A stretch of DNA of 34,860 nucleotides from Candidatus Altimarinota bacterium (GCA_031410215.1 JANNYQ010000057.1:1-34860); one strand, 5' to 3'. Shown: positions 3,506-29,371, numbered from the stretch's first letter. Translations and numbers: made by a program. Notes: generated by a model not told the origin, from the letters alone.

Positions 3506-4270
3506 ATGGCAACTCCTCTCGATATGCAACCAGTAGTTGATACTCAGTTAGAATCCCAAAAATCAAATATACTCGAAAAAACTGGTGAAGCCTGCAAGAA
3601 GCTCGGTATCGCAGTAGCCACAGCAGCTGCACTGCATTGTTCAGCATTTGCTCAATCTGCAGTCAGCTCGTCCCCTGCCGCTATGCTTCAGGTGACAAAA
3701 GGCTCAGGGGTATTGACAATCGATGGGAAGAATATGAGTTTTACGGAGTTTTTGACGAAATATCCAGAGCAGAAGGAGAGAAGTGCTATCTTAGGAAAGA
3801 TGGATGAAAAAACTGAAGATGCATTTCGTGACTGGGAGATATCGATGAGGAAAAATGAATCAAGTAGTATAGAAGTAGCGTTGAATCAAAAAAAAGAAGA
3901 ACGCAAAGGGGTAAATATAGCGTTGAATCAAGAAGATAAAGAATTAGTGAATGATAAAGGAGGATTGAATCAAAAAAAAGAAGAACGCAAAGGGGTAAAT
4001 ATAGCGTTGATTCAAATCACTCAAGTAAATGCTATACTCGATGATCTCATGCAGAATCAATGACTCAAAATGGCTTCAGAAAGTCAGAAAAAAATCAACC
4101 AAGAAAAAGGATCAATAATATTAGCGGCACTCGATAATCCTACGATCACTCAAGGGATGAAGCCTGAAACAATATCAATATTGAGAACTATTGGTAATAG
4201 TCTACAAAAAGGTGGTAATGTTGCCTATATAAACAGTGAAGTCGTCAAAAATATAAAAATTGCCTTATAG
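3506..4270 (+). CDS. Hypothetical, probably exported coiled-coil repeat protein (254 aa)
   Basis: ORFs 3506-4063 and 4070-4270 join across TGA. Signal-like segment KKLGIAVATAAALHCSAFA-Q and 14-aa repeats. Confidence 0.75.
3697..3843 (+). repeat. Direct repeat, copy 1 (partner 4570-4716)
   Basis: 109 bp with 1 mismatch, then 13 divergent bp, then 25 identical bp. Offset between copies is 873 bp. Confidence 0.95.
3878..4003 (+). repeat. 42 bp tandem modules in order A-B-A
   Basis: A = ALNQKKEERKGVNI, B = ALNQEDKELVNDKG. Confidence 0.95.
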
Positions 4271-4330: not shown

Positions 4331-6217
4331 ATGTCTGACATCCCCTCTATCTCATCTGGTGCGGGAACTCTGGAACAATCCAAAAAGAATCCCACACAAA
4401 TACTAGATTCCCTCCTCCAAAAAGGAGGTTTTCAAGTAACTCCAGAAGAGTTATCACATATTGATGCAGCAATTCGGCGGAATCCATCACTTCTGGAGAG
4501 TATAAATATAGATATCGCAGTAACTCAAACAAATCCGAACGAAAAATCCCGATTCGAAACAATATATCTAAAAGGCTCAGGAGTATTGACAATCGATGGG
4601 AAGAATATGAGTTTTACGGAGTTTTTGACGAAATATCCAGAGCAGAAGGAGAGAAGTGCTATCTTAGGAAAGATGGATCGCCCAACGAAAAATGCATTTC
4701 GTGACTGGGAGATATCAATTGAGGATATCTCTATAGCTCAGAAGAGTGGAGCGTTAAATCAAGAAGATAAAGAATTAGTGAATGATAAGGGAGCATTGAA
4801 TCAAAAAAAAGAAGAACGCAAAGGGGTAAATATAGCGTTGAATCAAGAAGATAAAGAATTAGTGAATGATAAAGGAGCATTGAATCAAAAATTAAATGAA
4901 ACAGAGCAACAAACTAAAAAACTCGTTGATCAAGCACGATCTCTGATGGATACTGGATCGAATGAGTTCGTCACTCGAGAACTCAATCAGATACAATCAG
5001 ATCCTACAGTTTCGCCTATCGCTCAGGATCTGATCAAGCGATGATCGACTATCGAGGATATCCAGAGTGGGCGACTCAACTCGACTATCGAGGCATATAT
5101 CATCTCGAACAACGAGAAGGCACTCATACCAAAAGACCCTCAAAAGGCCAAAGAATTCTCTGAGGTCGTCAGTCGTATGCGTGAGAATATCTGAGTGAAG
5201 CCAACACGCGATAATATCGATGCATTCGCTGCGAGCAAGGTACTCGGAACAGATAGAGAGCGGATCGTGAGCAATATGCACCAGATCGGATCGAGTGGCA
5301 AGTATGATCGTATGACCTGGGATGGTGAGACTCGGAGTGTCATATTCCATGGAGAGAGTGGAACACGGATACTCGATACCGCTAATATCCCACCTAGGGA
5401 AAGTATAATGAGGAATGGACTCTATATCTCTCGTGAGATCAGTCCAATAGTAGCTGATCCCGCTAGAGAACGCAATGAGAGCAAACGAAATGTAGTGGCA
5501 CAGATAGTACCAACGATATCTCGGGATATCAAAGAGATGCTCAGTGACAAGATGGAAGATGGGAATGAAATAGTCTCTCCAGAGATATGAGGTATGCTCG
5601 ATAATACCCTCTCTCATATCAGTCTCAGGAACTCGCAATCTGCGAAATTATCGCGAACTATGATCGAGACAACATGAGGTGTATTGCGTATGGAGCAAGG
5701 TCGTCTGAATATACTATCACAAGATAAGAGCAAAATCAATCCTCTCGATCCTGATATATGAGGCATCAAATGAACTATTACCAGGATCAATACTATCATG
5801 GAGTCACTCCAAAAGATACAAGAAAAGACTACTATAGAAGAAGAAAATACTCAGAGCAATAGGATCCTCTGGGATACAAACGCAAGAGATAATCTCTCAT
5901 GGCTCACGACAAAATATTTCGATCGTATAGGACCAAACGCTCAAGTCGCAATCGATCGTATCATAGGACTCGTCAATAGAGATCGAACTCTATCTAATCA
6001 GATACAACTCTGAGAGCCACTCAGTCCTATGAGCAAGAATATCCTAGAAAAATCAATAACCAAGCTCTGAGGTACTCCTGATATACTCACGAGTGGGGAT
6101 AAGCTCCCAATATTGCAAAAAAGAATCACAGAATCTCTCAACTATCCCCCATCAGATAGTCGCAGTATAGAGTGACAACTCCAGCAAGTTAACCCTGCAA
6201 AATCTGACATGAACTAG
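4331..6217 (+). CDS. Hypothetical coiled-coil protein (628 aa) sharing a cassette with the upstream gene
   Basis: ORFs 4331-5044, 5195-5590 and 5798-6013 are in one frame and join across TGAs to TAG 6215-6217. Confidence 0.8.
4570..4716 (+). repeat. Direct repeat, copy 2 (partner 3697-3843)
   Basis: Encodes KGSGVLTIDGKNMSFTEFLTKYPEQKERSAILGKMD...AFRDWEI in both genes. Confidence 0.95.
4751..4876 (+). repeat. 42 bp tandem modules in order B-A-B
   Basis: Same two 14-codon units as 3878-4003, in a different order. Confidence 0.95.
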
Positions 6218-10181: not shown

Positions 10182-10256
10182 TCCCCGATAGCTCAGCGGT
10201 AGAGCAACCGGCTGTTAACCGGTAGGTCATTGGTTCGAATCCAATTCGGGGAGCCA
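10182..10256 (+). tRNA. trnN: tRNA-Asn (GTT)
   Basis: Acceptor stem TCCCCGA/TCGGGGA, D-arm GCTC..GAGC, anticodon arm ACCGG-ctGTTaa-CCGGT, T-loop GTTCGAATC, discriminator G and an encoded CCA. Confidence 0.97.
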
Positions 10257-11749: not shown

Positions 11750-13576
11750 ATGTTCACGGATCTCATCACTCGCGTCATCACCGCTCACCCCGACTTCACC
11801 TCGGATGAGGTCGCCGAAGTGTGTCAGGCCTATATGGACTCCATGAGTAGCGAAAAAATCAAAGAAGAGACCAAGATGAAGCGACTCGTGAAGTATGTCG
11901 AGAAGGAGTTCGAACTCAGTGAATCTCGCCTAGAGAAGATATCGAACAAAATCTACAATCTGGAGTCCATTCCCGAGTATCTTTTTGCGTGAGATGCTCG
12001 TATCGTATCGGCACTCGTATCGATCACCGGACTGACCAAAAACATCGAACAAACGGAGCTCTTCACGGATGCTGAGTTGCAGATAACGCGTCGGGACAAG
12101 GTAGCCCTCATCGGTAAAAATGGAGCCTGAAAGACCACACTCCTCAAGATGATAATCGGTCGAGAGTGAGAATACAAGGGGACGATCGAGCGAGCGTCAG
12201 GACTCCGGGTCGGATACCTCTCGCAGGATCTCTTCTGGCAAGATACATCCAATACCCTCAGAGCCGAGATGCTCATGGTATTCCCAGATATCACCGAGCG
12301 AGTAGACCGACTCGCCGAGATCGAGTGGGACGATGAGCAGTGGGAAGAGGCAGATGCGATCAAGACCTACCTCAGAGATCACGATGGGTACCGCAGATAT
12401 GACTTGCAGACAGAGATACTCAGATATTTTGGATTCACCGATGCGATGCTCGATCAGCATGTCCTCTCACTCTCCGGAGGCGAGCAGACCAAGGTGCAGA
12501 TTGCGAAGTTCCTCATCACCGAGGTCGATCTACTCATCCTCGACGAGCCGACGAACCATCTTGATATCGAGGGGATTATTTTCCTCGAGAAATTTTGCAA
12601 AATCTGGAAAAAGGCGATCCTCTCAATCTCCCATGATATCAGATTCATCGATAATACCTCCGATCGGATCGTGGAGATCTCAGGCAAGCGTATCAACAAC
12701 TACCAGGGCAAATACTCAGAATACCTCGTGGAGAAACAAGCCAGGTACGATCGCCAACTCAAGGCCCATACCCTGCAAAAAAAGGAAATCGAAGAGCAAG
12801 AAGCATGGATCAATCGGTTCCGCTATACTCCGTCGAAGTCCAATAGTGTCCAGAGTCGTATCAAACAAGTAGATAAGATCGAGCGTATCGATAAGCCTGA
12901 GGGTGAATCGAGTGTAAGAGGTATCACGATCCGGGCTGGCAAGCGACTCCCTGAGAAGATCATGACCATCACGGATCTCGCTGTCGGGTACAATACACCG
13001 ATCATCACGACTCATGGAGAGATGATAGTAAGAAAAGATGACAAAATAGGCATCATCGGACGCAATGGAGCTGGGAAGACGACACTATTAAAAACAATCC
13101 TTGGTGAGCTTGCAGCCATATCTGGAACCGTCACAACCAATCCAGACCTCATCATTGGATCCTATTCTCAGGTGCTGGCAGACCTGGATGGCAGTGCGAG
13201 TATCATCACGGAGCTCGGACGCAACTACGAGAACGAGTGAGAGATCAGAGCGATGCTCGGTGGTCTCCTCATCACGGGTGACAAGGTGGATCAGACTATA
13301 CAGACGCTCTCAGGTGGAGAGCGAGCCAAGGTCGCACTCACCAAAATGCTCCTCACTCGCCCACACGTCATCATCATGGATGAGCCGACAAACCATCTGG
13401 ATCTCCATTCTAAGGAAGTGATCAAAAATATGCTCGAACACTTTGATGGGACGAGTCTCATTGTCTCCCATGACCGAGATCTCCTCGAACATATCTCCAA
13501 TAGAGTCTGGCTGATACAAGAGTGAGTACTGAGAGTTTTCGATGATAGCGAACGGTGATTTGCTGAGGTATTCTAG
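11750..13576 (+). CDS. ABC-F family ribosome-associated ATPase (608 aa) with an N-terminal extension
   Basis: Two nucleotide-binding domains: GKNGA(TGA=G)KT/LSGGE/LDEPTNHLD and GRNGAGKT/LSGGE/MDEPTNHLD. No TM segments. Ends in TAG. Confidence 0.93.
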
Positions 13577-13640
13577 CGGAGCTGCTTGTGTAGAGAGCAA
13601 TTCTCTATATAATTCAGAGGTATACTCAACGCAACACCAT

Positions 13641-14681
13641 ATGAAAAAACTCCTCATCTTCACAGATACATATACGGGGCAGATCAATGGTGTGAGTCGC
13701 TGTCTAGATAATCTCGCGAACAATCTCTCTCCTGATATACATCTCTCTATTATATCTTCGGATGACTTCGTGACTATCCCATTTCTGGGATACAAAGAAA
13801 TCCGACTCTCTCTAGCATTTCCACGCAATATCCTTGCTCGTATACGAGATATCCGCCCAGATTTTATCCATATCATGACCGAGTGACCCATAGGCCTGAC
13901 CGTCGCATATATCTGTCAGAGACGACATATTCCCTATACTACGACATTCCATACCAAGTACCCTGAGTATCTCAATATGAGAAACAGCCTCGTCAAAGAG
14001 GAATACGTCCACCAATATCTCCACTATATACATGATAGTGCTGAGGAGATATTCATCTCAAACTCAGGACTGGGCGAATACCTGATGAGAAACGGCTATG
14101 AGAACTCTACTATTGTTCCATTTGGTATCGATCATACTCTATTTTATCCTTGAGAAAGAACTCTATTTCTAGATATGGTAAGACCTATACTTCTTTATGT
14201 AGGACGCATAGCGATAGAGAAAAATATAATAGACTTTCTCGATATGGATACCAAATATGCAAAAATAGTAGTCTGAGATGGTCCTCTGTTAGAGTTATAC
14301 AAAGAGAAATATAGAGATATACAGTTTCTCGGGCAAAGGAGTGCATTAGAACTCGGTGAGATATACAGGAGTGTCGACGCATTTGTATTTCCTTCTAGGA
14401 CGGATACCCTCGGACTCGTGAATCTAGAGGCGATGGCCTGTGGACTCCCTATCATCGCCTATGACCTCGAGAATACAAGGTGCATAGTCGAGGATGGGGT
14501 CACGGGAGTACTCGTCCCTGAGGGGCAAAAACTCGAAACCGCAATCAAAGATATAGTGCATATCAGTTGCGAGGCATGTGCAGATTCTGTACGAGACGCT
14601 ACTTGGCAATACTATGCGAGAGAGTTCATTGCTCATCAATTCCCTATCAGCAAAACACTATGGACCTCAACCAATATCTAG
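13641..14681 (+). CDS. Glycosyltransferase family 4 (GT-B)
   Basis: FTDTYTGQINGVS, YVGRIAIEKNI and FVFPSRTDTLGLVNLEAMACGLP. Confidence 0.92.
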
Positions 14682-15337
14682 ATCCTCAGACTATCATATC
14701 TCTCCAAACTGGAGGCTATATATTTATGTTGATCCTTATGATCATAGAGGGACCGATTGTGACTTTCATTGCTGCATTTCTCGCGTCTCTTTGAGTTTTT
14801 GATATTTGGCTTGTATTGATACTCGGCTGGATGGGCGATATTCTCTGAGATCTATTGTTCTATAGTATTGGGAGATTCGGGTGGCAAATATTCCAGCGGA
14901 GTACTACGATCAAAAATCCAACACAATCATCGCTCATCCAAAAACTCGATCATCTCATCCAGACGAATCTCATCCTCGCTATCCTCGTCATCAAGTTCAC
15001 CCCGTATGCAGCACCCATCGGGCTCACCTATATCGGTAGGATGCGGGTCGATATACGGAAGTATCTCCTCGCTTCGATGGCACTCTGTATACCAATACCA
15101 CTCGTATCTGGACTCGTCGGGTACCATATCGGGATTATGAACACACTCATGAGCAGATACAGTGGAACAACATTGATGCTCTATATATTATGAGGCATCG
15201 GGATGATCGGTTTTGCTGTATGACTTTTCTTATTTCTCAGACAAAAATCGATACAAATCCTCAAGCAGGAATCGTCTATTTCGGGTAAAATCGAGAAAAA
15301 TACCACAGCTGATAGATCAACCGATGAAGTGGCATAA
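14660..15337 (+). CDS. DedA/VTT family membrane protein
   Basis: MIIEGPIVTFIAAFLASLG, GDILGDLLFYSIGRFG and KFTPY. Joined across TGAs to TAA. Confidence 0.85.
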
Positions 15338-15956
15338 CTGAGAGGATATCTCGAATCATACGGAGATCTGCGAGAGTCCCACGGATATATCAGATTTTCT
15401 CTGATTTTCTCGGTGTGATGACATCCTTGAGATAGATATTACTGACACTATATCCGAGTTCTATACTACGAGCATTGAGGAGTACCTCGAGTCAGAATCT
15501 TGATCATCTCAGATAGTATTGCTCATCATCGAATATCGTCCTCGGGAGGACTCGTTCCCCAGAGACAAAATCTGTACCCAGGAACTTGTAGATGGGGAGA
15601 CTATTCTCCCTAATAGAGAGACTGATGTCGGATTGCCTGTTCCTGATAGGATCGATCAGAGCGGTAATATGCGAAGGATATAGATAGAGTAAATCTGAGT
15701 CTATCATCACGATATATTCTCACTTCGCAATCCTGATTCCCGTGAGTACTGCATTGGTTTTTCATGCATTTTTTTCTAAAAATATGGTACGCAATTTCGG
15801 ATGAGTAAATGCATCGATCATCTCTCTAGTATTATCCATAGAGCAATCATCTACGACGATGACCTCATCGATATGATCACAACACAGAACTGCAGAAATT
15901 ACATTTGCGATGCGTGGTCACTCATTATATGCGGGGATAATGCAAGAGAAACTCAT
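15276..15956 (-). CDS. Glycosyltransferase family 2
   Basis: SCIIPAYNE(G), VIVVDDCSMDNT, NAGK, IDSDL (DxD), SGER and RFGLEV. Ends in TAG at 15276. Confidence 0.9.
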
Positions 15957-16061
15957 GATGTCTGTTATAGGATAAGCTAAGTATATGATAAAGAGATAAG
16001 AAGTACATTCCGAACCGAGCGCTTTATCTTGTATAAAGAGTTTTTTGTATATACTACTCCT

Positions 16062-17840
16062 ATGAATCATCTCAATATCAACATCAATACCTATGAGCGT
16101 GACGGCGATGTCATCATCGGTGATATCCATACAATCATCAACCAGGCTGACAGACTTGCTCTCATTGGACCCAACGGCGTCGGCAAGAGTACACTGATGC
16201 GGATCATCTCTGGAGAGATATCGGAATATGATGGCAATATCGAGAATATCGGTGGCATGACGCTCGGATATCTCGAGCAGATACACTTCATGGATGAGTC
16301 TATCACTATAAGAGATGAGCTCCGAGATGCATTCGCAGATATCCGAGCACTCGAACAGACTATAGTACGAGAAGAGATACAAATGGCAGAAACAGGAGAA
16401 TTCGAGGCGTACACCGAGGCGATCGAGAGATACAAGTTCCTTGGAGGATATACCTATGAGAATGAGGTAGAACGGGTGGCTCGTGGGATCGGGATATTTG
16501 AGCTCCTCGAAAAACCTCTATCGAATGTATCGGGTGGCGAACGGACCAAGATCGCTCTCGCAAAGATACTCCTCTCAAAACCTGATTTTCTCCTCCTCGA
16601 TGAGCCGACCAACTTCATCGATCTCGTATCAGTCGAGTGGCTCGAGCACTATCTCGAGCATACCTGGAAATGAGGATATATCATAGTCTCTCACGATCGC
16701 GAGTTCCTCGACCGCACTTGTAGTATCACCCTAGAAGTACTCGGAAAGGGCGGGATCAACACCTATCACGGCGACTACTCGTACTCCGTCGAGGAGCGAA
16801 AAAAGGTAAAAACCATACAAGACAAGAGATATGAAGAACAGCAGATCCATATCGAGAGTGAAAAGAAACTCATCAACCGATTCCGAGCAGGATCCCGATC
16901 AGGATTCGCAAAAAGTAGGGAGCGACAACTCGAAAAAGTCGAGATCATAGAGAAAGCAGAGACTCGTATAGGAGTCAACTTCATATTCGCATATGACAAA
17001 CATGGGCCCGAGACACTCATCAAGATCGAGGATACATTCATCGGACGACATGAGCCACTCTTCTTTGTTCGGAGTGCTATATTGTCAAGAGGAGATCGAG
17101 TATGAATTGTATGAGAAAACTGAGTTGGGAAATCTACTCTCATAAAAACTATACTGGGACAGATGAAGCCACTCGAAGGATATCTGAGTGTACATGAACA
17201 TGCTCGGATCCTCTACTTCTCACAACTCCATGAGACGCTCGACACAAGTACGAGTATATATGACAACTTCGTGCTCCATGGACTCCCATATTCTCATGAA
17301 CGAGTCGGGAGTATCATCTCGACCTATGGGTTCGAGTTCGCAGACTATACTAAGATCGTCGGTAACCTCTCTGGTGGAGAGAGGTCTCGTCTCCTTTTCG
17401 CTATACTAAGCCAGAATACGCTTGCATGGAAGCATACCAAGAAAACTGATATCCCAGAAAATGAAAATATAATTCCAGAATCCTCATCAGTATCCAATCT
17501 ACTGGTATTCGATGAGCCAACAAACCACCTCGATGCAGATACTCGAGAATCACTCGAGCGAGCAATTCGAGAATATCCAGGGACTGTACTCTTCATCTCT
17601 CATGATCGATACTTCGTAAACAAGCTCGCAGAGCGTCTCTGGATCATAGAGGATGGTGAACTCATCATCTCCTATGGCAACTATGAGGACTATCGGTACA
17701 AGCGTGAGCGAGGGATCGATCTCGATATGAGTCTCTTCAATGTGGATGGCGAGATGGATCTCGTCCTCGAGGAGAAACTGGGAGTCGTCGAGGCTCGCCG
17801 TATCAAGGAAAAGTTTGCCAGACGCAAGCTCAAGAAATAA
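16062..17840 (+). CDS. Second ABC-F family ATPase (592 aa)
   Basis: GPNGVGKST/VSGGE/LDEPTN and (G)EN(G)VGKST/LSGGE/FDEPTNHLD. Glycines of the second Walker A are encoded by TGA. Confidence 0.93.
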
Positions 17841-17882
17841 TAAAAAATTCTACCCCCGAGTAATCGAGGGTAGAATTTTTTA
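17841..17882. terminator. Bidirectional terminator
   Basis: TAAAAAATTCTACCC...GGGTAGAATTTTTTA between the ABC-F gene and the convergent fibre gene. Confidence 0.85.
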
Positions 17883-17910
17883 TGAATCAGTTTTTATTCA
17901 ATCCTATCAA

Positions 17911-20900
17911 TTATTGTATCACTGATATATAGTAGATCATCGATGGGAGATCGATAGTGGCTGCAGAGACATTACAGAACTTTGCCTCGACCGTATTGGC
18001 GGCTGACACTCGAGTATATGCTATGATCATACGATCAGCAAGTGCTGATGTAGGTGATATGGTAGCGACTCATCATATAGCTGCATTGGTAGCAGTAAAT
18101 GTCTGAGCAAGACAAGCAGAGGCTGCTATAGACGCTATATCAACAGTAGGTGCTACCTTGATAAAGGCATTGAGCTGAGTTCCGTTGGTTCCGAGCTCAA
18201 ATGTACCAGCGACATCGAGTTTCGATGTAGGGCTCGTACCGATACCTACATTTCCTGATGCATCGATCCTCATACGCTCTGTATTGTTAGTCGCGAATAC
18301 GACTGTACCATCTGCAGGAGAGAACATACCACCATCAGTATCTCCAGGAGATGAGAATAGATATCAGTTTGATCCATTGAATAAAGATCATCCCAATGCT
18401 CGCACTGCCCCGTCTACATCCAGCAAGCTCGATGGTGTTGATGTACCGATACCCACTGAACCGCTACTCATGATGCGCACTACTTCAACTGGTGCTATAT
18501 TGGTCGTAGTACTACGATTGGCGAATACGATATCTCCCTGAGTATTCCCTGTGGTACTCGTCGTGATGAATCAGATCTCAGCAGGAGCATATCTCGTCGT
18601 ACCAGCGAGTCCACTATAGCCGAATCCGATCGTCTGAAGAGCTGTTAGTCGGTTTTCGAGTCATCAGATATTGAGATATGGGGTACCATAGGCAACACTG
18701 AGATTGGCATCAGCTCATTGTATTCATCGTTTGATCATCATCTGTGGCACTGCAGAACTCGTCGATCATGATGGTGATCCTGCTACGACGAAGTGACGAT
18801 CTGGGAATGATGTCCCGATACCGACCTGTCCGCCACCACTGATTGCCTGGAGCTGTGAGTTGAGACCTGTATTGATATAGAGATACTCTGAGTGGTTAGC
18901 TGGTATCGAGAGTACTCTCTGCCATGGAGCTGGAGTCTGATAGGGTGAGTCGTTGGTATAGAGTCATCCTGTACTCGCTCAGTTGAACCGACCACTACGT
19001 GCAAAGAGTGGGGCATCACCACGAGCACCGAGTGCAAGTTGATACCCGAAAGTATCTCATTTTGCACTCATAGTGAACGAGTTATATGGACTCGCAGAGA
19101 GTCCCGTGACAGGATCAGCATTGGCACAATCATAGGCTCCTGGGGAACCATAGGTACCAGTTATCGAACAGAGAGCATCCGTACCGTCTTCTTTGAAATA
19201 TGGTCCATTGTTTGATGGGCCATCCCCCTTACTCACCACAAATGATTGTTTACCAGGGATAGCAAAATACTGATTAAAATCATAACTCACATTGAATGTA
19301 GTAAGATCAGGATTCGGAGTAGGTGGTGAATTGCGGAGAGTACCAGTATAGACGGCGATATTGCTGATCGGACTGATTGGCATGACCTTGCCTGATCAAT
19401 CAACACCAAGTGCAAGGACATTATTCGAGGTGAGAGGAGTAGAGAGATTGATACGAGCAAACCTGAGTCCAGAGTCATTGGCGATACCAGAGTCAATAAC
19501 GAACTTGGTAGTGAGTCCTACTCCAGTGCCTACACCAATATTGGTACCATTATCGAATATTTGAGAAGCATAGAGTCCAGTACCTCCAGTACCAAATTTG
19601 GAGATGTAGTTCTCTACTCCTCCTGTGATCCCTGTAGCTGTTGCACCTGAGAGTGATGATGACCATGTGGCGAGACCGGTGGCATCTGAGGTGAGGATCT
19701 TGCCCGCTCATGGTACACCTCCGGTGATACGCACTGTTCCGGATACCGTGAGAGTTGTAGTAGGTGAGCTCGTACCGATACCGACGAAGTTGCCCACATT
19801 GTACATCACGGATCCTGTGAGAGCATCTCAGAGGGTCGCATCCGCTCGTGGCATCTGATTCGGGAGAAATCCCAGTCATGAGACGCCCGCTGACCAGGCA
19901 CAGTTGGATCACATCTTATTCACTCCGTTGATCCACATACGACACTCCTGTCATCCATTCTCAGAGAGAGTGAGCATAGGATTGGTAGAATTCGTACTAC
20001 CGAGGGCCTCCACTGTGATATACCCGAGTGTAGCAGCTCATCAGAGGATACCCGTAATATCTCCTATATAGAGTTTTCACCCTGTCTCATAGAGTTGTGA
20101 ATTATTGATGAGTCCACCACTATCGAATTTGGATATATAGTTCGGTGTACCACTACTACGGACGAGATTATTAAGACCTGTCCATGATGATATACAGATA
20201 TCGTTGATACAGAGTCAGCTACCCGTATTGAGAATACTGCCCGATCCTCGGATATCGAACATATACTGTGGATTGATCGTGTTCATACCAATCCGCGATC
20301 AACTATAGTAGAGTGATGTAGGATAGAGCCCAGTACCTCCAGTACCAAAATATGGAATATAGTATCCAGAACCTCCTGTAATACCAGTAGCCGTAGTGGT
20401 ACCTGAGAATCCAGTCATCCAAGTAGCAAGACCACTCGCATCAGAGGTGAGGATCTTACCAAGACCTGGTGATCCTCCTGCAATCCGTATCTGATTTGAG
20501 AGATACAGGTTCTGCCATGGGAGTGCTACCGATCCGATATCGCGATACATAGCAGGAGCTCATACATCTGGGAGTAGAGATCCTGATATCGTCACATTGG
20601 CTACAGTACGATTGACTATCGTATCGGTGATGACCTTGCCCTGGACAGTGATATCACCTGTGATGAGAGCAGATCCTGATACTGTGAGCTTCGCTGATGG
20701 AGTCGATGTACCGATACCGATATTGGATCCTGAGTTGTAGATATTGACTGAGGGTACCCAGGTTGTACCATTGTAGTAGAGTGTAGAACCGAGCACTGAT
20801 CCAGAGATAGAGAGTCCTGTCGCGATCGGAGCAGCCCAGCTGGCAACTCCGAGTGCATCAGAGATAAGATAGTATCCACTGGCAGATCCACTCCGCATAC

Positions 20901-22872
20901 GGATCTGTCAGTTCACATCGAGGAGTGCTGTCGGAGATGTTGTACCGATACCGATACTACCACTATTACCATATATCCAGTTACCGATATTGAGCTGATT
21001 AGATCATGTTGCAGAGACTAGATTGACTCATGCACCTATGGCAATATTGTAACTACCAGATCCGAGATTTTGTCATGCATTGCTACCAATAGCAGTATTA
21101 TAGCTACCGAGCGTATTATTTTGGAGTGCAAATGCACCATTCGCTGTATTATTTGTTCCAAGAGTATTTGCCCAAAGTGAGCTAATTCCATTCGCTGTAT
21201 TATAGTTACCAGTAGTATTATATACGAGTGAATCATATCAGTTAGCTGTATTATAGTTACCACTACTATTATTCTGTAGACTGAGTCTACCTATAGCGGT
21301 ATTACCAGGCATACTGCCACCTCATCGACCTATTCTATATCAGTTGATGAGTATATCATATGGCACATCAAGTCGAGCTAATGGTACATTGGTACCTATA
21401 CCAACATTAGTACCATCATCGAATATCTGTGAGTTATTGATCCCCGTTCCCGTTGGCGTATATTTTGCTATATAGTTGGTAGTACCGACGAGTGGTCATG
21501 CGAGACCCAGAGTCGTGGTCGATGGTGCTGCTGCTGGAATTTGCCAAGTTGCTATACCTCCTGTATCACTCGTGAGAACTCTGCCATTTCATTGTGTGCC
21601 ATCAGCTATCTTGATATTGCCACCGATATCTAGACGAGCTATAGGATTGAGTACTCCGATACCGATATTGCCATTGTAGCCATAGATCACATTCCCGATA
21701 TTGAGCTGATTGGATGAGATATTACCGATATTGGGCTGTGTATTGTATCAGATGAATATATTATTATTTCCTGATGTCAGATTAGCTCCTGCGAGATATC
21801 CGAGAGCCGTATTATTGTATCCAGTATTATTATTATAGAGTGAGCTCATACCGACAGCAGTATTCTGGTATCCTGTGATATTGCCATAGAGGGCGTTATA
21901 TCCATTGGCCGTATTGGTAGCTATATTCCCTGCTCCTCGCCCCACTGTGACTCAGTTGATCGTAGCATCTGCGATAGTGACGAGATTGCTACTGGCACCC
22001 GAGAGGCGCATCCCCTCGATACTATTGCGTCGGAACACGAGATCCTGATTATCTGCGGTACCGACATAGTCAGTTGCTGAGGTAGTACCCGAGTTACCAG
22101 TCTGTCGCCAGAATGCTCCAGAAAGAGCGAAGTCTGCAGTACTCACAGAGGGTTGCCATGAGGCGAGACCCGTCGCATCAGAGGTCAGTACTCTCCCTGA
22201 GGCAAATCCACCACCCATGATACGGATCGTCCCCGCAATATCGAGCTTGGCACCTGGGACTGCAGTTCCGATACCGATATTGGTACCGTTATCAAAAAAC
22301 TGAGACGGATAGAGTCCTGTACCTCCAGTACCGAATTTTGATACGTAGTTCGCGACTCCTCCAGTGATCCCTGTAGCAGTAGCACCAGCAACTGATGATG
22401 ACCAATATGCGAGACCAGTGGCATCTGAGGTGAGTACACGATTAGTCCCAGGAGTTCCACCAGTGATCTTGACTTGTCAGTTGATCTCGAGACGAGCACC
22501 TGGAGTCGCTGTACCGACTCCAACATTGGTACCATCGTCATAGATCTGAGAATTGTTGATCCCTGTACCAGTAGGAGTATACTTGGCTACATAGTTTGGA
22601 GTACCGACGAGTGATCCTGAGAGGGAGAGGGTAGCATTGGATACTGCAGCAGTCGGGATGATCTGACAATGTGGCGTACCATCTAGACCAAATCCGTACA
22701 ACACCTCTCAGACATAACAATCTGTGAACATATTGGTGAAATACGTATTAAAATATCCACCAGTAGTCTCACTCGCAGGTGTACCTACAGGATAGGTCAC
22801 TGCATATGTCTTTGGTATAGCGAGTGATATGAGAGAGATGATACAGAAAAGCCGAGAAAAGAGAGATCGCAT
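17911..22872 (-). CDS. Giant secreted tail-fibre-like/adhesin protein A (1653 aa)
   Basis: One frame from ATG 22872 to TAA 17911 under code 25. Signal peptide MRSLFSRLFCIISLISLAIPKTYA, repeated VGIGT..P...L.V.G / VLTSDATGLASW modules and NTANG..AL repeats. Confidence 0.85.
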
Positions 22873-22915
22873 AAGGAAGAGTTACCAATTATAGTATATG
22901 ATTTGGAGAGAACTA

Positions 22916-25900
22916 CTATTTAGAAAGTTTTGCCTCGATAGCATCGAGTCGCTTCTTGAGTGACTCATTCTCTGATCTGAGAGCAATTATATCAGCTTTG
23001 TTTGACTTGACTATGGTAGCGAGCTCTTTGATAGCCTCGATCACTGGAGCGATGAGATGTCCATACTCGACATTTTTGTATGTCTTCTTAGAGTCTGGAT
23101 CCGTGTATTCTCATACTGCATCAGGGAATATTTTCTCTACCTCTTGAGCGATGAGTCCGAGATCTTTTTTATCATCTTTTTTCCACTTAAAGTAATATCC
23201 ATTCATCGCCGTGACCTTGTCGAGAGATGATGTGATTTTGACGAGGTCTTTTTTGAGACGAGCATCTGAGATATAGTAATAGGCTGGAGAGTTCATGTAG
23301 GCACCGGCCTGTATGATCGAGTCTACGTACATATATTTTCATCCGTAGCTGCGTATCCACGTAGGATCGCTCATCCACCACCCTCATCCATAGCTCTGAG
23401 AGTACCACCCAGCATTGCCATTGGATCTGAACCATCCATTGTTGTATATCTCATTTCCCGTTATAGATCCATTAGCATTGATATTTCCCATGTTATTCTG
23501 ACCACCATTAGTATCCCAATATACCATCCAGCTCCCATATCCATTGAGGAATCACATCACATTGGAGTTCGCATGGATAGACTTGGGTCATCCAGCTGAT
23601 TCGTCAGTATCAGGCATAAAGAATCGTGAAGAGGTAGTTCCAGCAGAGCCATCTGCTACTCTCGCACTATCGACACGTACCCCATAGGTACTCCCTCCAT
23701 TCCATCACATGAGTGTAGGGTAGCTCGCTGACCATGGTGCTGATGAATCAGTATTGCTGATAGCTCCTCCAGCAGGTGACGTACTAGCAGAAGCATCGAT
23801 GATGACATGACCATTTCCATAGTTCTTCCATCTCATATATTGAGAGGTACCTATATCGAGAGTAGAGTCAACCCGAGCGGTATCACCGAGTGACTTTGCT
23901 GTGACTCCAGCCCATGTGACAGATGATGTAGCCGTCTGCCAACTCGCAAGTCCTGATGCATCTGAGGTGAGGACTTTGCCAGCTCCTGGTGCACCTCCTG
24001 TGATCTGTAGAGTACCATTGGCTACGATATTTTTTGCTGCAAAGTTCTCATATCCAGTACCTGGATTATCGAACGTACGGATAGCTCCATCAGATCCCAT
24101 ACCGATCTGACTCGCGACCCTCCCTGCCCAGTGAAATGATACTCTCGGAGCCTCAGATACTACTGCTGACTGGGCTCAGGCAAAGTTGAGCTCTCGTACC
24201 TCGAGTGCCGCATTGGAGTATGATGAGCTATTGGTGGCGGAGGCCATCTGCCAGTCTCCAGCAGCATCATTGCGGTGAAAATTGGATGGATTGATACCTC
24301 ATGCAAGTGTAGAGTTAGCTGCAAGTGTCGTACTATCTGATAGATCGACTCGTCCATTGGTATTGGCATCACAGCTACTACCATATCCACTCTCACATCC
24401 GACTTCGAACATACGTACACGACCAGTGACATTGTTTGCGGCAAATGCTGGAGCACCTGTGATACCTGTCCATGGAACTGATGAGGCAGCTCATGGGGTG
24501 ATCCAACTCGCGAGACCCGCTGCATCTGAGGTGAGTACTTTGCCTGCACCAGGAAGACCTCCAGTGATCTTGACTTGTCCTGCTACTTCTAGTTTGGCTC
24601 ATGGAGTCGTAATACCGATACCGACATTACCATTGGTCAATAGAGTCATGACGCTATTACCATATCATGCAAATAGTACTAATGGATGCGAACTCTCAGT
24701 ACCTATGCTACCAGCTCATCATGCAATAGGCCAAGATGAGTGACTAAATATTCCGGTTTTTACTCCTGCTGTATTTTCTGTTGCGAGGATTTTTGCGGTA
24801 CCTGCTCAATTGACATCCAATACTCTTCCCCAACCCTGAACATTGCTCGGAGTTGCTGTGCCGATACCTATATTCCCACTCGTTCCATAGATCCAGTTCC
24901 CTATAGAGAGTTGATTGGATCCAGTAGCAAATAATACCTGTGCATTGCTACCTATAGCGATATTGGATGATCCCGTAGTGATATATATACCTGCAGATCT
25001 TCAGATAGCAGTATTATCACTTCCTGTGGTGTTGTATCCGAGAGCATAGATACCATTGGCAGTATTATTAGCTCCACTTGTATTGAATCCTAGAGAAAAT
25101 GCACCATAACCAGCATTATAGTCTGCGTTATTTTGATAGAGTGACTGATATCCATAAGCACTATTGGCACCGCCTGAAGCATTTCCATAGAGAGATTGAA
25201 ATCCATAAGCGGTATTAGCACTTCCTATGCTATTAGCAAGAAGTGCTCAGACACCATTGGCAGTATTATGGTTTCCTGTAGTATTACTATAGAGAGATTG
25301 AAGTCAATTTGCAGTATTGAAGTTCCCTGTAGTATTTTGAGCAAGTGCATATGCTCCATTTGCAGAATTCTGTATTCCAGTGGTATTATTCGTGAGTGCC
25401 CGAAATCCGATCGCCGTACTCTCTGAGGCGAGATTTTGCCAGAGAGCTCAGAACCCAACAGCTGTATTACCAGCACCAGTAACATTGTACATGAGAGCAT
25501 TTACACCATTTGCGGTATTCTGGTTTCCTGTGGTATTGGAGAAGAGAGCATAGACTCCATTCGCAGTGTTACTGACTCCTGTAGTATTGGCATAGAGAGC
25601 AGAGTCTCCATCGGCAGTATTCTGAACTCCTGTGGTATTGAATCTGAGGGTAGACATTCCATTTGCAGTGTTACTACCTCCGGTGGTATTGGTGTAGAGA
25701 GAATACACTCCATTCGCGGTGTTATAGTTTCCCGTGGTGTTAGAGAAGAGAGCAGATTGTCCATTTGCGGTATTGCTGACTCCTGTGGTATTAGACTGGA
25801 GAGCAGATTGTCCATTTGCGGTATTATAGTTTCCAGCAGTGTTGGATTGGAGAGCAGAGACTCCATTCGCAGTGTTGGAGCTTCCCACGGTGTTGTACTG

Positions 25901-27064
25901 GAGAGCAGAGACTCCATTCGCAGTGTTGTATCCCCCGGTGGTATTAGTAACCAGAGCATTGATACCATAACACGTATTGCTAGATCCACTTCCAGGACAT
26001 ACTTGTCACGATGTTGTCGCTATCCAACTCGCGAGACCAGTTGCATCACTCGTGAGGACTTTTCCGACTCATGGTGTCCCTCCGGTGATCTTCACCTGTC
26101 CTGCTACTTCGAGCTTGGCACCTGGAGTCGTAGTTCCGATACCGACATTTCACCCGGCGGCATTGATCGCGACAGCGGTATACGGAGAGTCTGACTGGAT
26201 GTTGTATATACCAGCTGCATCGATACCTGTCCAGTACTTGCGGACACCCCCGATCAGCCATTCCATATAGTTGTATGTGGTACCACTTGTCTTGTTGAGT
26301 CTGAGGAGATTGTCCTGTGTTCCTGCTATCTCGAGCTTGGCTCCTGGAGTGTTTGTTCCGATACCGACACTGCCTGTACTCGCCTGTATCACATTGGCTC
26401 CTGAAAGTCCCCAAGTAGTATTGTTCGCTGGAGTACCTGCCGAGGTCTTCACACAGTAGAGGAGAGCTACGTTGCGGGGACGAGTTTCAGTACCTGTACG
26501 AGGCGTTCAGTTTACTCAATCTGATATTGGTCATGCGGTGTTATAGGGTAGTAATCCAGTATAAAACTGACCACCTCATCCAGTCACATTCCATCAGCTC
26601 ACAAGATTTCAAAGTATGTTGCTAGTTGTATGGATATGCCCCTGCATAGTATCAGTCTGAGTACTCGCGAGTACTCGGCCAGTATCGACTCCCCGACCAT
26701 TGTCCCATCATCTGATGAACTCACCCCTGAGATCAGGATTGCCACCAGTACCATCTGCCGGTGACCATCCTGATGGACATGATGCGAGGTTGAACGCTGA
26801 TATCGTCCCTATCGGTGCCTCAGCTCCAGTTCATGATCCTCAGGCAGTACAGAGTAGTATCCCAGTCGGTGAGAATCCCCTCACTACATCTCATCCGCTA
26901 CATCCACTGGTGTTAAACATGTTGGTGAAGTACCCATTGAACGTACCACTTCATACTTCTCCACTAGGCGTCGTAGATGGATATGGGATGGCTGATACCA
27001 TCGGTGTGAGCATGAGAGCTACAACGAATGAGAGGAGCGAGAGGAGTGAGATATATATTCGCAT
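22916..27064 (-). CDS. Giant secreted tail-fibre-like protein B (1382 aa) with a tail-collar-type segment and a C-terminal S74 intramolecular chaperone
   Basis: One frame to TAG 22916. Signal peptide, PDLRGEFIRGWDNGRGVD...ETRPRNVALLYCVK, 18-aa repeats, and SDARLKKD...LGLIAQEVEKIFPDAV...VIEAIKEL followed by a coiled coil. Confidence 0.88.
24950..25985 (-). repeat. Tandem ~54 bp (18-aa) repeats, consensus NTANGxSALxSNTTGxx
   Basis: CCATT(C/T)GC(A/G)GT(A/G)TT recurs every 54 bp. The array is homogeneous at 25450-25960 and more degenerate at 24950-25440. Confidence 0.9.
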
Positions 27065-27107
27065 ACTGGGATGATTAGAGAAATATGGAAGCAGTGAGAG
27101 GAACTCG

Positions 27108-28493
27108 CTATCTCGACTCGGCGAATCATGGAGGAGGATCAGTGAGGATAGCTGGATCATACTCTATGATCATGACAGCATCTTTGATCTTTGCTACACT
27201 TGATCTCTGCGTTGGGAGTGATGATTGACTAGTGATGAGCGGATTGTAGGTACGGAAATAGTCCCAATCATAGGAGTAGACATTGGCCTGGTTACACCCT
27301 ACTACGAGTGCAGGACAGATAGGTGGAGTCTGTTGAGATCCACCGATTGTATTCTTGGATGCCATGAGTCCTCGTATATAGAGTTGATTCTGTGGGATAT
27401 TCCATATACCCGTATTACTGTATTTGATTATAGGTGCTACTGATGATGCCTTGTCTCCTGAGAATATACTCCCCTCAGCATAGAGATACGCATAGATACG
27501 CTTCACCTGATCACTGATGACGATATTGCCTCCATTTCCTGTGATAGGATCCTTGAGAGCGATGAGTCCGATAGTACGATTGGCCCAGAGGAGTGAGTTC
27601 ACATCGACATCATTGATGACGATATCTCAGCCGATGACGATGAGAGATCTCTTCCCTGCTGTGAGGTATGGAGTGAGACTCGAGAGCTCGATACGCAGAT
27701 CAGATCATTTTCTGATTATAAAATCAAATTTAGTATCTGTACTGACAGGATCAAGATCACTATCACTGATATTTCTACTCATGAGTGCTATATTTTTGCG
27801 AATCATATTAAGGATATTCGCATGATTGATTGACTTGTAGCTGTATCCAACATCCTGATTGACTACTCCGTTGTTCTGGACTGAGAACACTCGTGACCCT
27901 GCGATATTCCCCACAATCGCGATCTTGGAGACGAAGTTGATCGGCACACCCGCTAGTGGATCGACGATAGTAGTCGGAGTCGGGAGTAGAGATCCAGATA
28001 CACTCGTCCACATAGGGATCCATCCGAGCGACCTGCTCCAGCCCCATCACTCGATATTACCGGTATTCGGATTAAAATAAGTACCTGAGCTCGTCCCCCC
28101 AATATCTGTAGCTGAGAATGCTATCCATCCAGCATTCTGACTCCAGGCGTACCCACTCATAGGACACAGCTGAGTGGCACCAGTCCATATCGTAGTAGGG
28201 CATACTATCTGTGCGGTGGAGCCTGCTACACCATGAGAAAATGATACCCATCAGACATTGCCGAGCCAGAATGCTCCAGAGAGAGTACCATCAGACAGGA
28301 TAGTGCCGCTCCCGACATCAAAATTGACTCTTCCAGGATATCCACCACCAGTATAGCTCGTACCACCATTACCACTCCACCCATTATTGATAGGAAAAAT
28401 CCCCCTGAGAGAGATGGTAGGATTCGAGAGAGCGACGAGAGCTCCGATAGAGAACAAGCTGATCAAAAGAGCGACGAATATCTTGCCTTTCAT
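27108..28493 (-). CDS. Secreted CPR-type protein (461 aa), possibly pilus- or surface-fibre-associated
   Basis: Signal peptide MKGKIFVALLISLFSIGALVA, GAFWLGNVGWVSF / GYAWSQNAGWIAF repeats, a beta-helix-like IYAYLYAEGSIF..QLYIRGLMASKNTIGG segment and a terminal YDP..L..PPPGF. Joined across TGAs to TAG. Confidence 0.8.
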
Positions 28494-28517: not shown

Positions 28518-28545
28518 ATTGTATGTGGTAGACTACAAAAATCAA
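28518..28545 (-). promoter_or_regulatory. Candidate promoter of the fibre locus
   Basis: Minus strand TTGATT-16 bp-TACAAT. Confidence 0.45.
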
Positions 28546-28600
28546 AAAAAATCACTTCACAAAGTAGAAACAAAATGTATTGTATAACTCTTGTATTCAT

Positions 28601-29371
28601 ATGCACATATTCGATCTCTCGATATACGGTCTGCGTATAGCTCCAACGTGGTATGGACTCTCCTATGCTCTGGGATTTATTATTTGTTATTTCTTCGTGA
28701 GACGGTTCTATACTTTCAGCAAAAAAGAGCATATAGATACCCTCCTCTCATATATATTCGTAGGAATTATACTAGGTGGACGACTCGGCTATGTACTGCT
28801 CTACAATTTATCTTACTTTATAGAGCATCCTATCAATGTTATAAAAATCTGGGAATGAGGTATGAGTTTCCATGGAGGATTCATATGAGTAGTCATCACT
28901 GTATATCTTTTTGCGAAGCGGTACTCATACGGATTCTGGTCACTCATCGACACGCTCGCCGTGATCATACCAGTAGCACTCGGGCTCGGACGCATGGGCA
29001 ATTGGGTCAATCAGGAACTCCCAGGATATAGCCCATATGATGGGGTATATCCGATGATGATCGACGGAGTATGACACTTCCCTTCTCCACTCCTCGAGAT
29101 GCTCCTGGAGGGTATAGTATTACTCATCGTGATGTTGATTTCATGGAGATTTTTGAGCAAAAAAAATCCATGATTACTCTCAGGAATTTTCCTGATTGGA
29201 TATAGTATAGCTCGGATCACCTGAGAACAATATCGTCTCCCTGATGCTCATATCGGATATCTCATCTCGACTGATTGGCTGACACTCGGGATACTCTACA
29301 CACTACCAATGTTGGGGTATGGTTTATATTTGACCTACACCTCTACTCGATCTCGCCCTGGGAGCAGATAG
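28601..29371 (+). CDS. lgt: Prolipoprotein diacylglyceryl transferase
   Basis: WYGLSY, GGRLGYV, WE(TGA=G)GMSFHGG, GLGRMGNWVNQEL and HFPSPLLE. Ends in TAG. Confidence 0.93.

Follow-up and report, generated by a model that had tools for sequence, protein, structure and literature searches.

A three-gene operon was analysed on the minus strand of a 34,860-nucleotide stretch of DNA from Candidatus Altimarinota bacterium (GCA_031410215.1 JANNYQ010000057.1:1-34860). This whole 34.9-kb stretch is referred to as the window, and coordinates given without a contig or locus label are positions within it. Translation with table 25, in which TGA encodes glycine, resulted in three long co-oriented frames at 17.9-28.5 kb: P0001 (27108-28493, 461 amino acids (aa)), which is the first gene of the operon, P0002 (22916-27064, 1382 aa), a fibre of S74 type, and P0003 (17911-22872, 1653 aa), a fibre of non-S74 type. 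P0001 is separated from P0002, and P0002 from P0003, by 43 bases, and the number, orientation, and lengths of the genes are those given in a preliminary description made from the sequence alone. From its first ATG, the P0002 frame spans 22916-27160 (1414 aa); the conserved start is M33 at 27064, which gives the 1382-aa form, and the same MR(I/L)Y marks the start of the P0002 orthologues.

When P0001, ABC-F, and lgt were aligned with their orthologues, TGA codons shared a column with GGN in 1302 cases and with TGG in 8. The 936-kb draft genome of the window (G000) carries a tRNA with the anticodon UCA (G000:C50:2765-2843) and a separate tRNA-Trp(CCA). The former was labelled SeC (selenocysteine) by ARAGORN with default parameters; taken together with the pairing of TGA and GGN, it is the expected tRNA-Gly(UCA) of code 25. 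Standard-code annotation had been predicted to miss this locus, and it does mishandle it: table 11 fragments the same region into pieces of at most 162 aa, and the database copy of P0003 (P0093) differs at 47 positions, 38 of which are changes from G to W at exactly the TGA codons. Public protein collections write this clade with TGA as tryptophan, and the fibres are mis-written in public databases either in this way or as genes cut short. Many library homologues are short, some of them perhaps having been cut at TGA or at contig ends. DNA of the locus was found in eight public sequencing runs from two freshwater sediment studies, with no RNA run among those listed.

Modular composition of the two giant fibres

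All three proteins begin with a Sec-type signal peptide, as the preliminary description had stated, called here by a manual rule (basic start, hydrophobic core, and small-x-small site). The leader of P0002 lies at 26990-27064 (MRIYISLLSLLSFVVALMLTPMVSA, followed by IPYP), that of P0003 reads MRSLFSRLFCIISLISLAIPKTYA and is followed by VTYP, and that of P0001 covers residues 1-23. Their hydrophobic cores reach 12-residue Kyte-Doolittle means of 2.7-2.9, and cleavage is predicted between VSA and IPYP (P0002), TYA and VTYP (P0003), and ALS and NP (P0001). All 16 orthologous fibre N-termini retain the leader pattern, as do 13 full-length orthologues of P0001. The P0001 site is the weakest of the three, and two orthologues have N at position -1.

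Directly behind the leader, all fibres of the locus share a domain of roughly 50 residues with two cysteines (hereafter the N-domain), located at 26849-26989 in P0002 (YPxxxPxGExxGxFxxYFTNMF..C..G.V.GF...G...C) and at 22663-22800 in P0003. The consensus of 26 fibre N-termini is xxYPxxxPxGExxGGxFxxYF(T/D)NMF...C..G.V..GF...G...C, with invariant G, Y, F, C, F, and C, and the motif behind the leader was kept in 16 of 16 orthologous fibre N-termini.

The N-domain of P0002 is followed by a tail-collar domain like that of T4 gp12 (26435-26797; phrog_523 at 9e-27), which matched a phage short tail fibre (PDB 9cuy, E 3.3e-5) when the cut-out domain was used as the query. The HxH motif of this domain, which in gp12 is a metal site on the three-fold axis, reads GHIHT. 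Further along (24965-25927) is a run of 17 NTAxG repeats with a 17-residue spacing except for two 33-residue gaps, matching phrog_23837, phrog_4636, and phrog_6002 at 2.5e-47 to 1.4e-35. Marine phages of Pelagibacter, Roseobacter, and Methylophilales have tail fibres that share 40-46% identity with these repeats, which we take to resemble YadA head repeats; no YadA family was found in P0002 or P0003 by Pfam at E ≤ 0.01, their C-termini being the S74 domain and a small tip. P0002 also carries GIGT...VLTSDAxGLASW units, with GIGT recurring three times. The C-terminal end (22919-23269) consists of an S74 intramolecular chaperone with the motif SDARLK and a coiled-coil tail (Pfam PF13884 at 4e-16; Peptidase_S74 at 59.4 bits against a cut-off of 22). 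SDARLK, at residue 1266 of the 1382-aa form, aligns with SDRRIK of the phage long tail fibre 6f45 (E 0.003), covering SDxRxKK, and the S74 domain is predicted to be cut off after the trimer has folded.

Tail collar, tail spike, and tail fibre families of PHROGs were detected in both P0002 and P0003. Along with the Pfam S74 domain and the two PDB matches (9cuy and 6f45), this agrees with the earlier assertion that the giant genes are built of tail-fibre modules. P0002 partly matched 442 phage records, with at most 29% of the query covered among the 15 records listed; given this limited coverage, the giants are regarded as mosaics of phage-type modules and not as copies of one phage gene. Neither whole P0002 nor its middle 1003 residues had a PDB sequence match at E ≤ 1, and only the cut-out collar and S74 domains were matched. 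Pfam contained no Shufflon_N match in P0002 or P0003, and NCBIfam no match for P0001, P0002, or P0003. At 24300-25900, within the NTAxG repeats of P0002, contigs of four sediment metagenome runs break or join differently, with about one third of the pieces in three of the runs (one seventh in the fourth) continuing into unlike sequence. These breaks may be strain variation or an artefact of repeats, cross-mapping, or assembly, and are not used as support for any statement.

The shaft of P0003 is composed of GIGT...VLTSDAxGLAxW units (GIGT seven times), which are more numerous than in P0002, and of two short NTAxG runs; no S74 domain was found in P0003 by Pfam. It matched Bd2133 (PDB 8OND), a non-S74 MAT (mosaic adhesive trimer) fibre of Bdellovibrio, at E 5.2e-5, the match running through an ERMRIDxSGNxGIGT..P..L.V unit and two more shaft stretches. 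By BLASTP against orthologous fibres, a module of about 280 aa (residues 1095-1375; 18748-19590) was found to be shuffled, occurring once or twice and at differing positions in these proteins; L019 and L022 each have two regions that match. The C-terminal tip (17914-18255; ...TRVSAANTVEAKFCNVS...ISVIQ) is one of at least four tip types present at the locus. An AlphaFold2 (AF2) monomer model of residues 1095-1653 (12-row alignment; pLDDT 45, pTM 0.24) was unusable, and a word-index search with residues 1-110 resulted in four matches, none carrying a name.

Conservation of the locus and pairing of the N-domain with the P0001 family

Full-length P0001 orthologues (42-85% identity) were found in about 18 of the 40 relatives searched, and 14 orthologous loci from relatives of several genera were read. 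The order of fibre gene(s), P0001 orthologue, divergent lgt, LemA, and sugar transferase was the same in all 14. The gene for valyl-tRNA synthetase (ValRS) came next in nine of nine loci whose stretch extends that far, and ABC-F lay at the other end in eight of eight that reach it. Two fibre genes were present in two of eight fully read loci (G009 and G014), with the remaining six holding a single fibre of 1528-2270 aa. The linkage of the three genes that had been proposed thus stands for the P0001 orthologue, which is always linked to a fibre gene, but not for the pair of fibres. What is conserved is not the three-gene form but a member of the 461-aa family together with one or more fibres bearing the shared N-domain.

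The fibre genes diverge fast: P0002 shares only 41% identity with its orthologue in G009 and 37% with that in G014, large insertions and deletions separating them, against 80-81% for P0001 in the same genomes. At least four unrelated C-terminal tips occupy the same locus among relatives. The P0003-type tip is also found in G009, G014, G001, and G012, and other tips in G020/G015, G002, and G004. By this pattern of sequence change, the fibres at this fixed site appear to evolve like receptor-binding proteins.

A profile search with the N-domain against 1.84 billion cluster representatives resulted in 286 proteins at E ≤ 0.001. Among the best 150 matches, 74 hold the whole domain once, starting no more than about 50 residues behind an N-terminus that resembles a leader, and the other 76 hold the second, cysteine-hairpin half only, often in tandem and in unrelated architectures. 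Within the 201 genomes of the class that were searched, 12 strong N-domain places were found, all of them in the family of the window; 10 lie within 0.8 kb of a P0001-profile match, and 2 represent the second of two tandem fibres. Four P0001-family genes are present in the genome of the window, along with four N-domain proteins that sit in three loci (C57, C34, and C51), each beside a P0001-family gene. For paralogous loci in relatives, the pair was adjacent in six of nine; in a seventh a fibre-like gene lies 2.9 kb away, and an eighth meets a contig edge. Cassette fibres range from 188 to 2270 aa and have only the N-domain in common. That the locus fibres share this domain, and that it is found almost only beside a member of the P0001 family, is new here, as is the placement of such a cassette after type IV minor pilins in some genomes (see below).

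As a separate observation on the library matches, the cysteine-hairpin half (C..G.V.GF...G...C) was present in 3-11 tandem copies in the 76 proteins noted above (best 150: P0097-P0246). Their architectures were varied and included weak TSP1 or CC-domain matches, Calx-beta, and one prepilin. Two library proteins with a single N-domain contain leucine-rich repeats of BspA type.

Two paralogous cassettes occur in the genome. On C34 (L039; G000:C34:11881-17895), genes for T2SSF/PilC, three N_methyl prepilins, and a 313-aa pilin-like protein are followed by a co-oriented 188-aa N-domain protein and P0001 paralogue, and then by convergent dnaB. The interval that separates the last pilin gene from dnaB was read in 11 genomes and holds the cassette or part of it in 5: a P0001 paralogue and an N-domain gene follow PilC and four pilin-type genes in G000, G009, G014, and G011, and the N-domain gene only is in the same place in G002. 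In the other six genomes, the minor-pilin operon runs straight to dnaB with nothing inserted. Given their co-oriented position after the minor pilins, some cassettes are probably co-transcribed with them. This pilin link concerns the paralogous cassette and not the locus in the window, and it is not general; no pilin gene was found near the window locus in any of the 14 relatives. On C51 (L040; G000:C51:12866-16601), a P0001 paralogue of 836 aa, truncated where the contig ends, accompanies a 389-aa mini-fibre made up of the N-domain, a Shufflon_N-like stretch (32.9 bits, cut-off 27.5), and an S74 chaperone. Elsewhere in the genome, on C1 (L042; G000:C1:77-1774), a prepilin of 352 aa, the C-terminal half of which is repeated and rich in cysteine, is followed by a leader-bearing protein of 203 aa that is 53% identical to the P0002 collar domain.

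P0001 itself was modelled with AF2 from a 69-row alignment (pLDDT 79, pTM 0.78). The model displays a leader helix, a predicted N-terminal eight-strand beta-barrel (residues ~25-183) with conserved N(V/A)GW(V/I)xF motifs, and a predicted C-terminal triangular beta-solenoid with a flanking helix (~187-459) that ends in IIEYDP...PPPGF. No Pfam or PHROG family was assigned, and neither a match in 50,697 phage records nor a significant BFVD fold match was obtained; Foldseek searches of the model against PDB and BFVD resulted in nothing at E ≤ 0.001. All 89 near-length homologues are unnamed or 'hypothetical', and the three with a named source come from Candidatus Gracilibacteria or Altimarinota. 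The C-domain resembled ice-binding DUF3494 folds (Z 8.1 for 7bwx over 150 residues with a root-mean-square deviation of 3.6, 7.8 for 6bg8, 7.7 for 5uyt, and 7.5 for 3wp9) and the beta-solenoid of ComZ (Z 7.6, 178 residues aligned; Foldseek rank 1, E 0.11), and the N-terminal barrel was closest to assorted small barrels (Z up to 7.1). By the statement of the structural-search tool, Z scores of this size are typical for models that have no true relative, and these noise-level scores are used as leads only. Pfam gave no DUF3494 match for P0001. It likewise gave no N_methyl match for P0001 or its three paralogues, while the three neighbouring pilins do match. The candidate assignment of P0001 as a prepilin processed within MKGK, after the G, was rejected; the G is not conserved in orthologues, and the leader is of Sec type. 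The precomputed Pfam lists of 10 longer P0001 relatives contained no pilin or fibre family.

The P0001 profile matched 114 of the 201 class genomes. In standard-code relatives, the match lies at the C-terminus of proteins of 700-3800 aa that carry a leader, and by this distribution the P0001 C-domain is older than the fibre cassette. In some of these relatives (L073:9931-12774; L080:9639-12386 and 12979-15963), GW motifs and solenoid frame a long variable middle in one protein; such single proteins have 700-1300 aa and extend up to ~3800 aa. It looks as if the short code-25 form of P0001 has handed its variable part to separate fibres.

Candidate surface fibres and alternative explanations

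Fibres of MAT type have been described from Bdellovibrio bacteriovorus (Caulton et al. 2024; PMC10769870). They form S74 and non-S74 subfamilies and have a signal peptide, a constant N-domain, a trimeric beta-helix that meanders, and an end of either type; they were located on the surface of the predator, and one binds prey glycans. The fibres of the window fit this plan with a leader, a constant domain behind it, a shaft with GIGT units that is predicted to be beta-helical, and an S74 or other tip, and both groups have mosaic exchangeable tips and several paralogues per genome. Given this fit and the sequence match to Bd2133, the system is not categorically new. It differs from MAT in phylum and genetic code, in fibres of up to 2270 aa, and in the placement of some cassettes in a minor-pilin operon. 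Each fibre locus here is also paired with a secreted P0001 family, whereas the MAT description, as far as available, includes no such partner (PMC10769870).

Comparison with other systems is more limited. Phage fibres and spikes (K1F endosialidase, T5 pb1, S16 gp38-type, and the T4 gp12 collar) share the SDxxxK S74 domain, HxH collar, and NTAxG repeats; in contrast to these, the genes here have Sec leaders, no nearby virion genes, a fixed cellular locus, and a collar near the N-terminus instead of at the distal end. Variable tips are shared with R64 PilV, where they serve target-cell choice. A Shufflon_N-like stretch, as in these shufflon adhesins, is present in the C51 mini-fibre and in library relatives P0203 and P0212, but the fibres bear no pilin N-terminus, and neither invertible DNA nor a recombinase is present. 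For Vampirococcus, giant surface proteins and pili have been named and a fibrous, sticky surface and piled-up cells described; the words 'tail', 'fibre', and 'fiber' do not appear in the main text of that paper (PMC8080830).

The operon most probably encodes, in our judgement with somewhat better than even confidence, MAT-like cell-surface adhesin fibres docked by the 461-aa protein, and as part of this same reading it is likely a vertically inherited, chromosomal operon of the code-25 Gracilibacteria lineage. P0001, P0002, and P0003 would be exported by Sec and their leaders cleaved, with P0002 and P0003 folding outside the membrane into long trimeric beta-helical fibres. In P0002, the S74 chaperone would register the trimer and then cut itself off at the serine of SDARLK, exposing the distal end; P0003 would present its non-S74 tip. 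The exchangeable distal modules may bind surface structures of a host or prey, and the constant two-cysteine N-domain, as the proximal end, would dock on P0001 and hold the fibre at the cell surface. The preliminary description had proposed that phage fibres were domesticated as exported trimeric adhesins for host or prey recognition. The MAT precedent (PMC10769870) and the match of P0003 to Bd2133 favour this, while the trimeric state, export, and host binding are inferred.

Under this reading, the locus provides named candidates for the finding and holding of hosts in Gracilibacteria and their code-25 relatives, with fibres of a kind seen in Bdellovibrio to recognise prey (PMC10769870). With a fixed site and tips that differ between close relatives, tip type could predict host range from metagenomes. 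The co-inherited P0001 family is a testable candidate for the proximal anchor, which in the MAT account had not yet been identified (PMC10769870). A literature search, with subscription journals and supplementary files outside its scope, resulted in nothing among the papers listed linking Gracilibacteria or Patescibacteria with tail fibres or S74.

Several points count against MAT-like fibres docked by P0001. The match to Bd2133 runs over a short repeated shaft unit that is common to many phage and bacterial fibres, and the N-domain has about 50 aa with two cysteines here as opposed to about 130 beta-rich aa in MAT, the two being compared by description (PMC10769870). Signal peptides were judged by rule and not by a trained predictor, and with its weak cleavage site in this subclade P0001 could be membrane-anchored instead. 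Docking on P0001 is suggested by gene adjacency, and one of the four P0001 paralogues in the genome (C23) has no fibre neighbour, nor does the ninth of the paralogous loci in relatives. No N-domain fibre or pilin was found beside the 700-3800-aa proteins of standard-code relatives in the eight loci read; as the P0001 C-domain occurs there without N-domain fibres, its ancestral job would not need them. The phrase 'host or prey' is carried over by analogy from cultivated Absconditabacteria (PMC8080830).

The role of P0001 as a platform or pilus adaptor, also raised in the preliminary description, is suggested by gene adjacency and noise-level fold likeness. In an alternative, the family would serve as a non-pilin type IV pilus tip protein (the role of PilY1 or ComZ), sitting on the minor-pilin complex, and the fibres would be displayed on a retractable pilus instead of the cell body. 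We consider this unlikely. ComZ of Thermus thermophilus is a proposed pilus-tip protein with a solenoid that is itself ice-binding-protein-like (PMC6561018), and the P0001 C-domain is predicted to be a similar triangular beta-solenoid (Z 7.6). P0001 paralogues follow PilC and four pilin-type genes in four genomes, with the N-domain gene doing so in a fifth; the C51 fibre carries Shufflon_N, the constant region of PilV; a prepilin precedes the collar-domain protein on C1; and the MAT authors raise a possible interplay with type IV pili (PMC10769870). P0001 differs from ComZ and PilY1, however, in having no pilin domain, prepilin leader, or PilY1 beta-propeller: its leader is of Sec type, the G of MKGK is not conserved, and its 10 longer homologues have no pilin family in their precomputed Pfam lists. 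The Z scores are at the level of unrelated models, the cassette is missing from the minor-pilin operon in 6 of 11 genomes, and the window locus has no nearby pilin gene in 14 relatives. A more specific version, in which the P0001 family is the missing dock that binds the fibre N-domain and seats the fibre on the type IV minor-pilin tip complex, is speculative and also improbable; if true, ultra-small bacteria would fish for hosts with retractable pili tipped by exchangeable phage-type fibres, a novel type of pilus adhesin that could explain how MAT-like fibres are anchored.

P0001 could instead be an extracytoplasmic assembly factor, with the fibres held otherwise or released, which we regard as quite unlikely. 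Strict gene pairing would suit a helper as well as a dock, and P0003 and the small N-domain proteins, having no S74, might need folding help; yet S74-bearing fibres are also paired with the P0001 family (C51), P0001 is unlike known tail-fibre assembly proteins in PHROGs and BFVD, and the part common to its partner fibres is the proximal N-domain, whereas phage tail-fibre assembly helpers act at the distal end. A general surface coat or self-adhesion layer, used for cell stacking or sediment attachment and not for host recognition, is very improbable. The occurrence of the locus DNA in freshwater sediment metagenomes would fit, as would the sticky fibrous surface of Vampirococcus, ascribed to giant proteins, with cells that pile up (PMC8080830). 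However, exchange of tips and rapid divergence at one fixed site are expected for variable foreign targets and not for self or mineral surfaces, and MAT fibres, the closest studied relatives, bind prey glycans (PMC10769870). Hardly credible is a decayed prophage or tailocin remnant with fibre genes that still serve a particle. All recognisable fibre modules do have phage relatives, but homologues are not confined to prophages: the locus is chromosomal, with Sec leaders conserved, P0001 without a phage match, and G+C content that is even throughout and like that of the flanks. As the preliminary description had noted, the flanks are housekeeping (ABC-F and lgt), and Pfam analysis of 25 hand-picked, longer other frames of the window found no capsid, terminase, portal, sheath, tube, baseplate, or integrase family. 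With the same housekeeping neighbours in 14 of 14 relatives of several genera and no particle genes among the scanned frames, the locus is judged not to be a prophage.

Flanking features of the window

The operon is flanked by ABC-F (16029-17840) and lgt (28580-29371). Between the stop of P0003 and the convergent ABC-F gene, a consensus scan located a terminator-like hairpin on the minus strand (17840-17883), which has a stem of 20 pairs and a T run. The 86 bases that separate P0001 from the divergent lgt hold a promoter-like site on the minus strand (TTGATT-16-TACAAT, 28518-28545), found by the same type of scan; such sites were no commoner than in shuffled sequences (27 versus 24.6). The remaining genes of the window are housekeeping and comprise RadA, RecX, NUDIX, methionyl-tRNA synthetase (MetRS), two ABC-F, glycosyltransferases, lgt, LemA, a sugar transferase, ValRS, and a sigma factor. 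A tRNA-Asn(GTT) lies at 10182-10256, between the MetRS and DUF4256 genes. Two adjacent genes at 3506-4270 and 4331-6217 (254 and 628 aa), which had no Pfam match, contain near-identical shared stretches (KGSGVLTIDGKNMSFTEFLTKYPEQKERSAILGKMD... and ALNQEDKELVNDKG... repeats).

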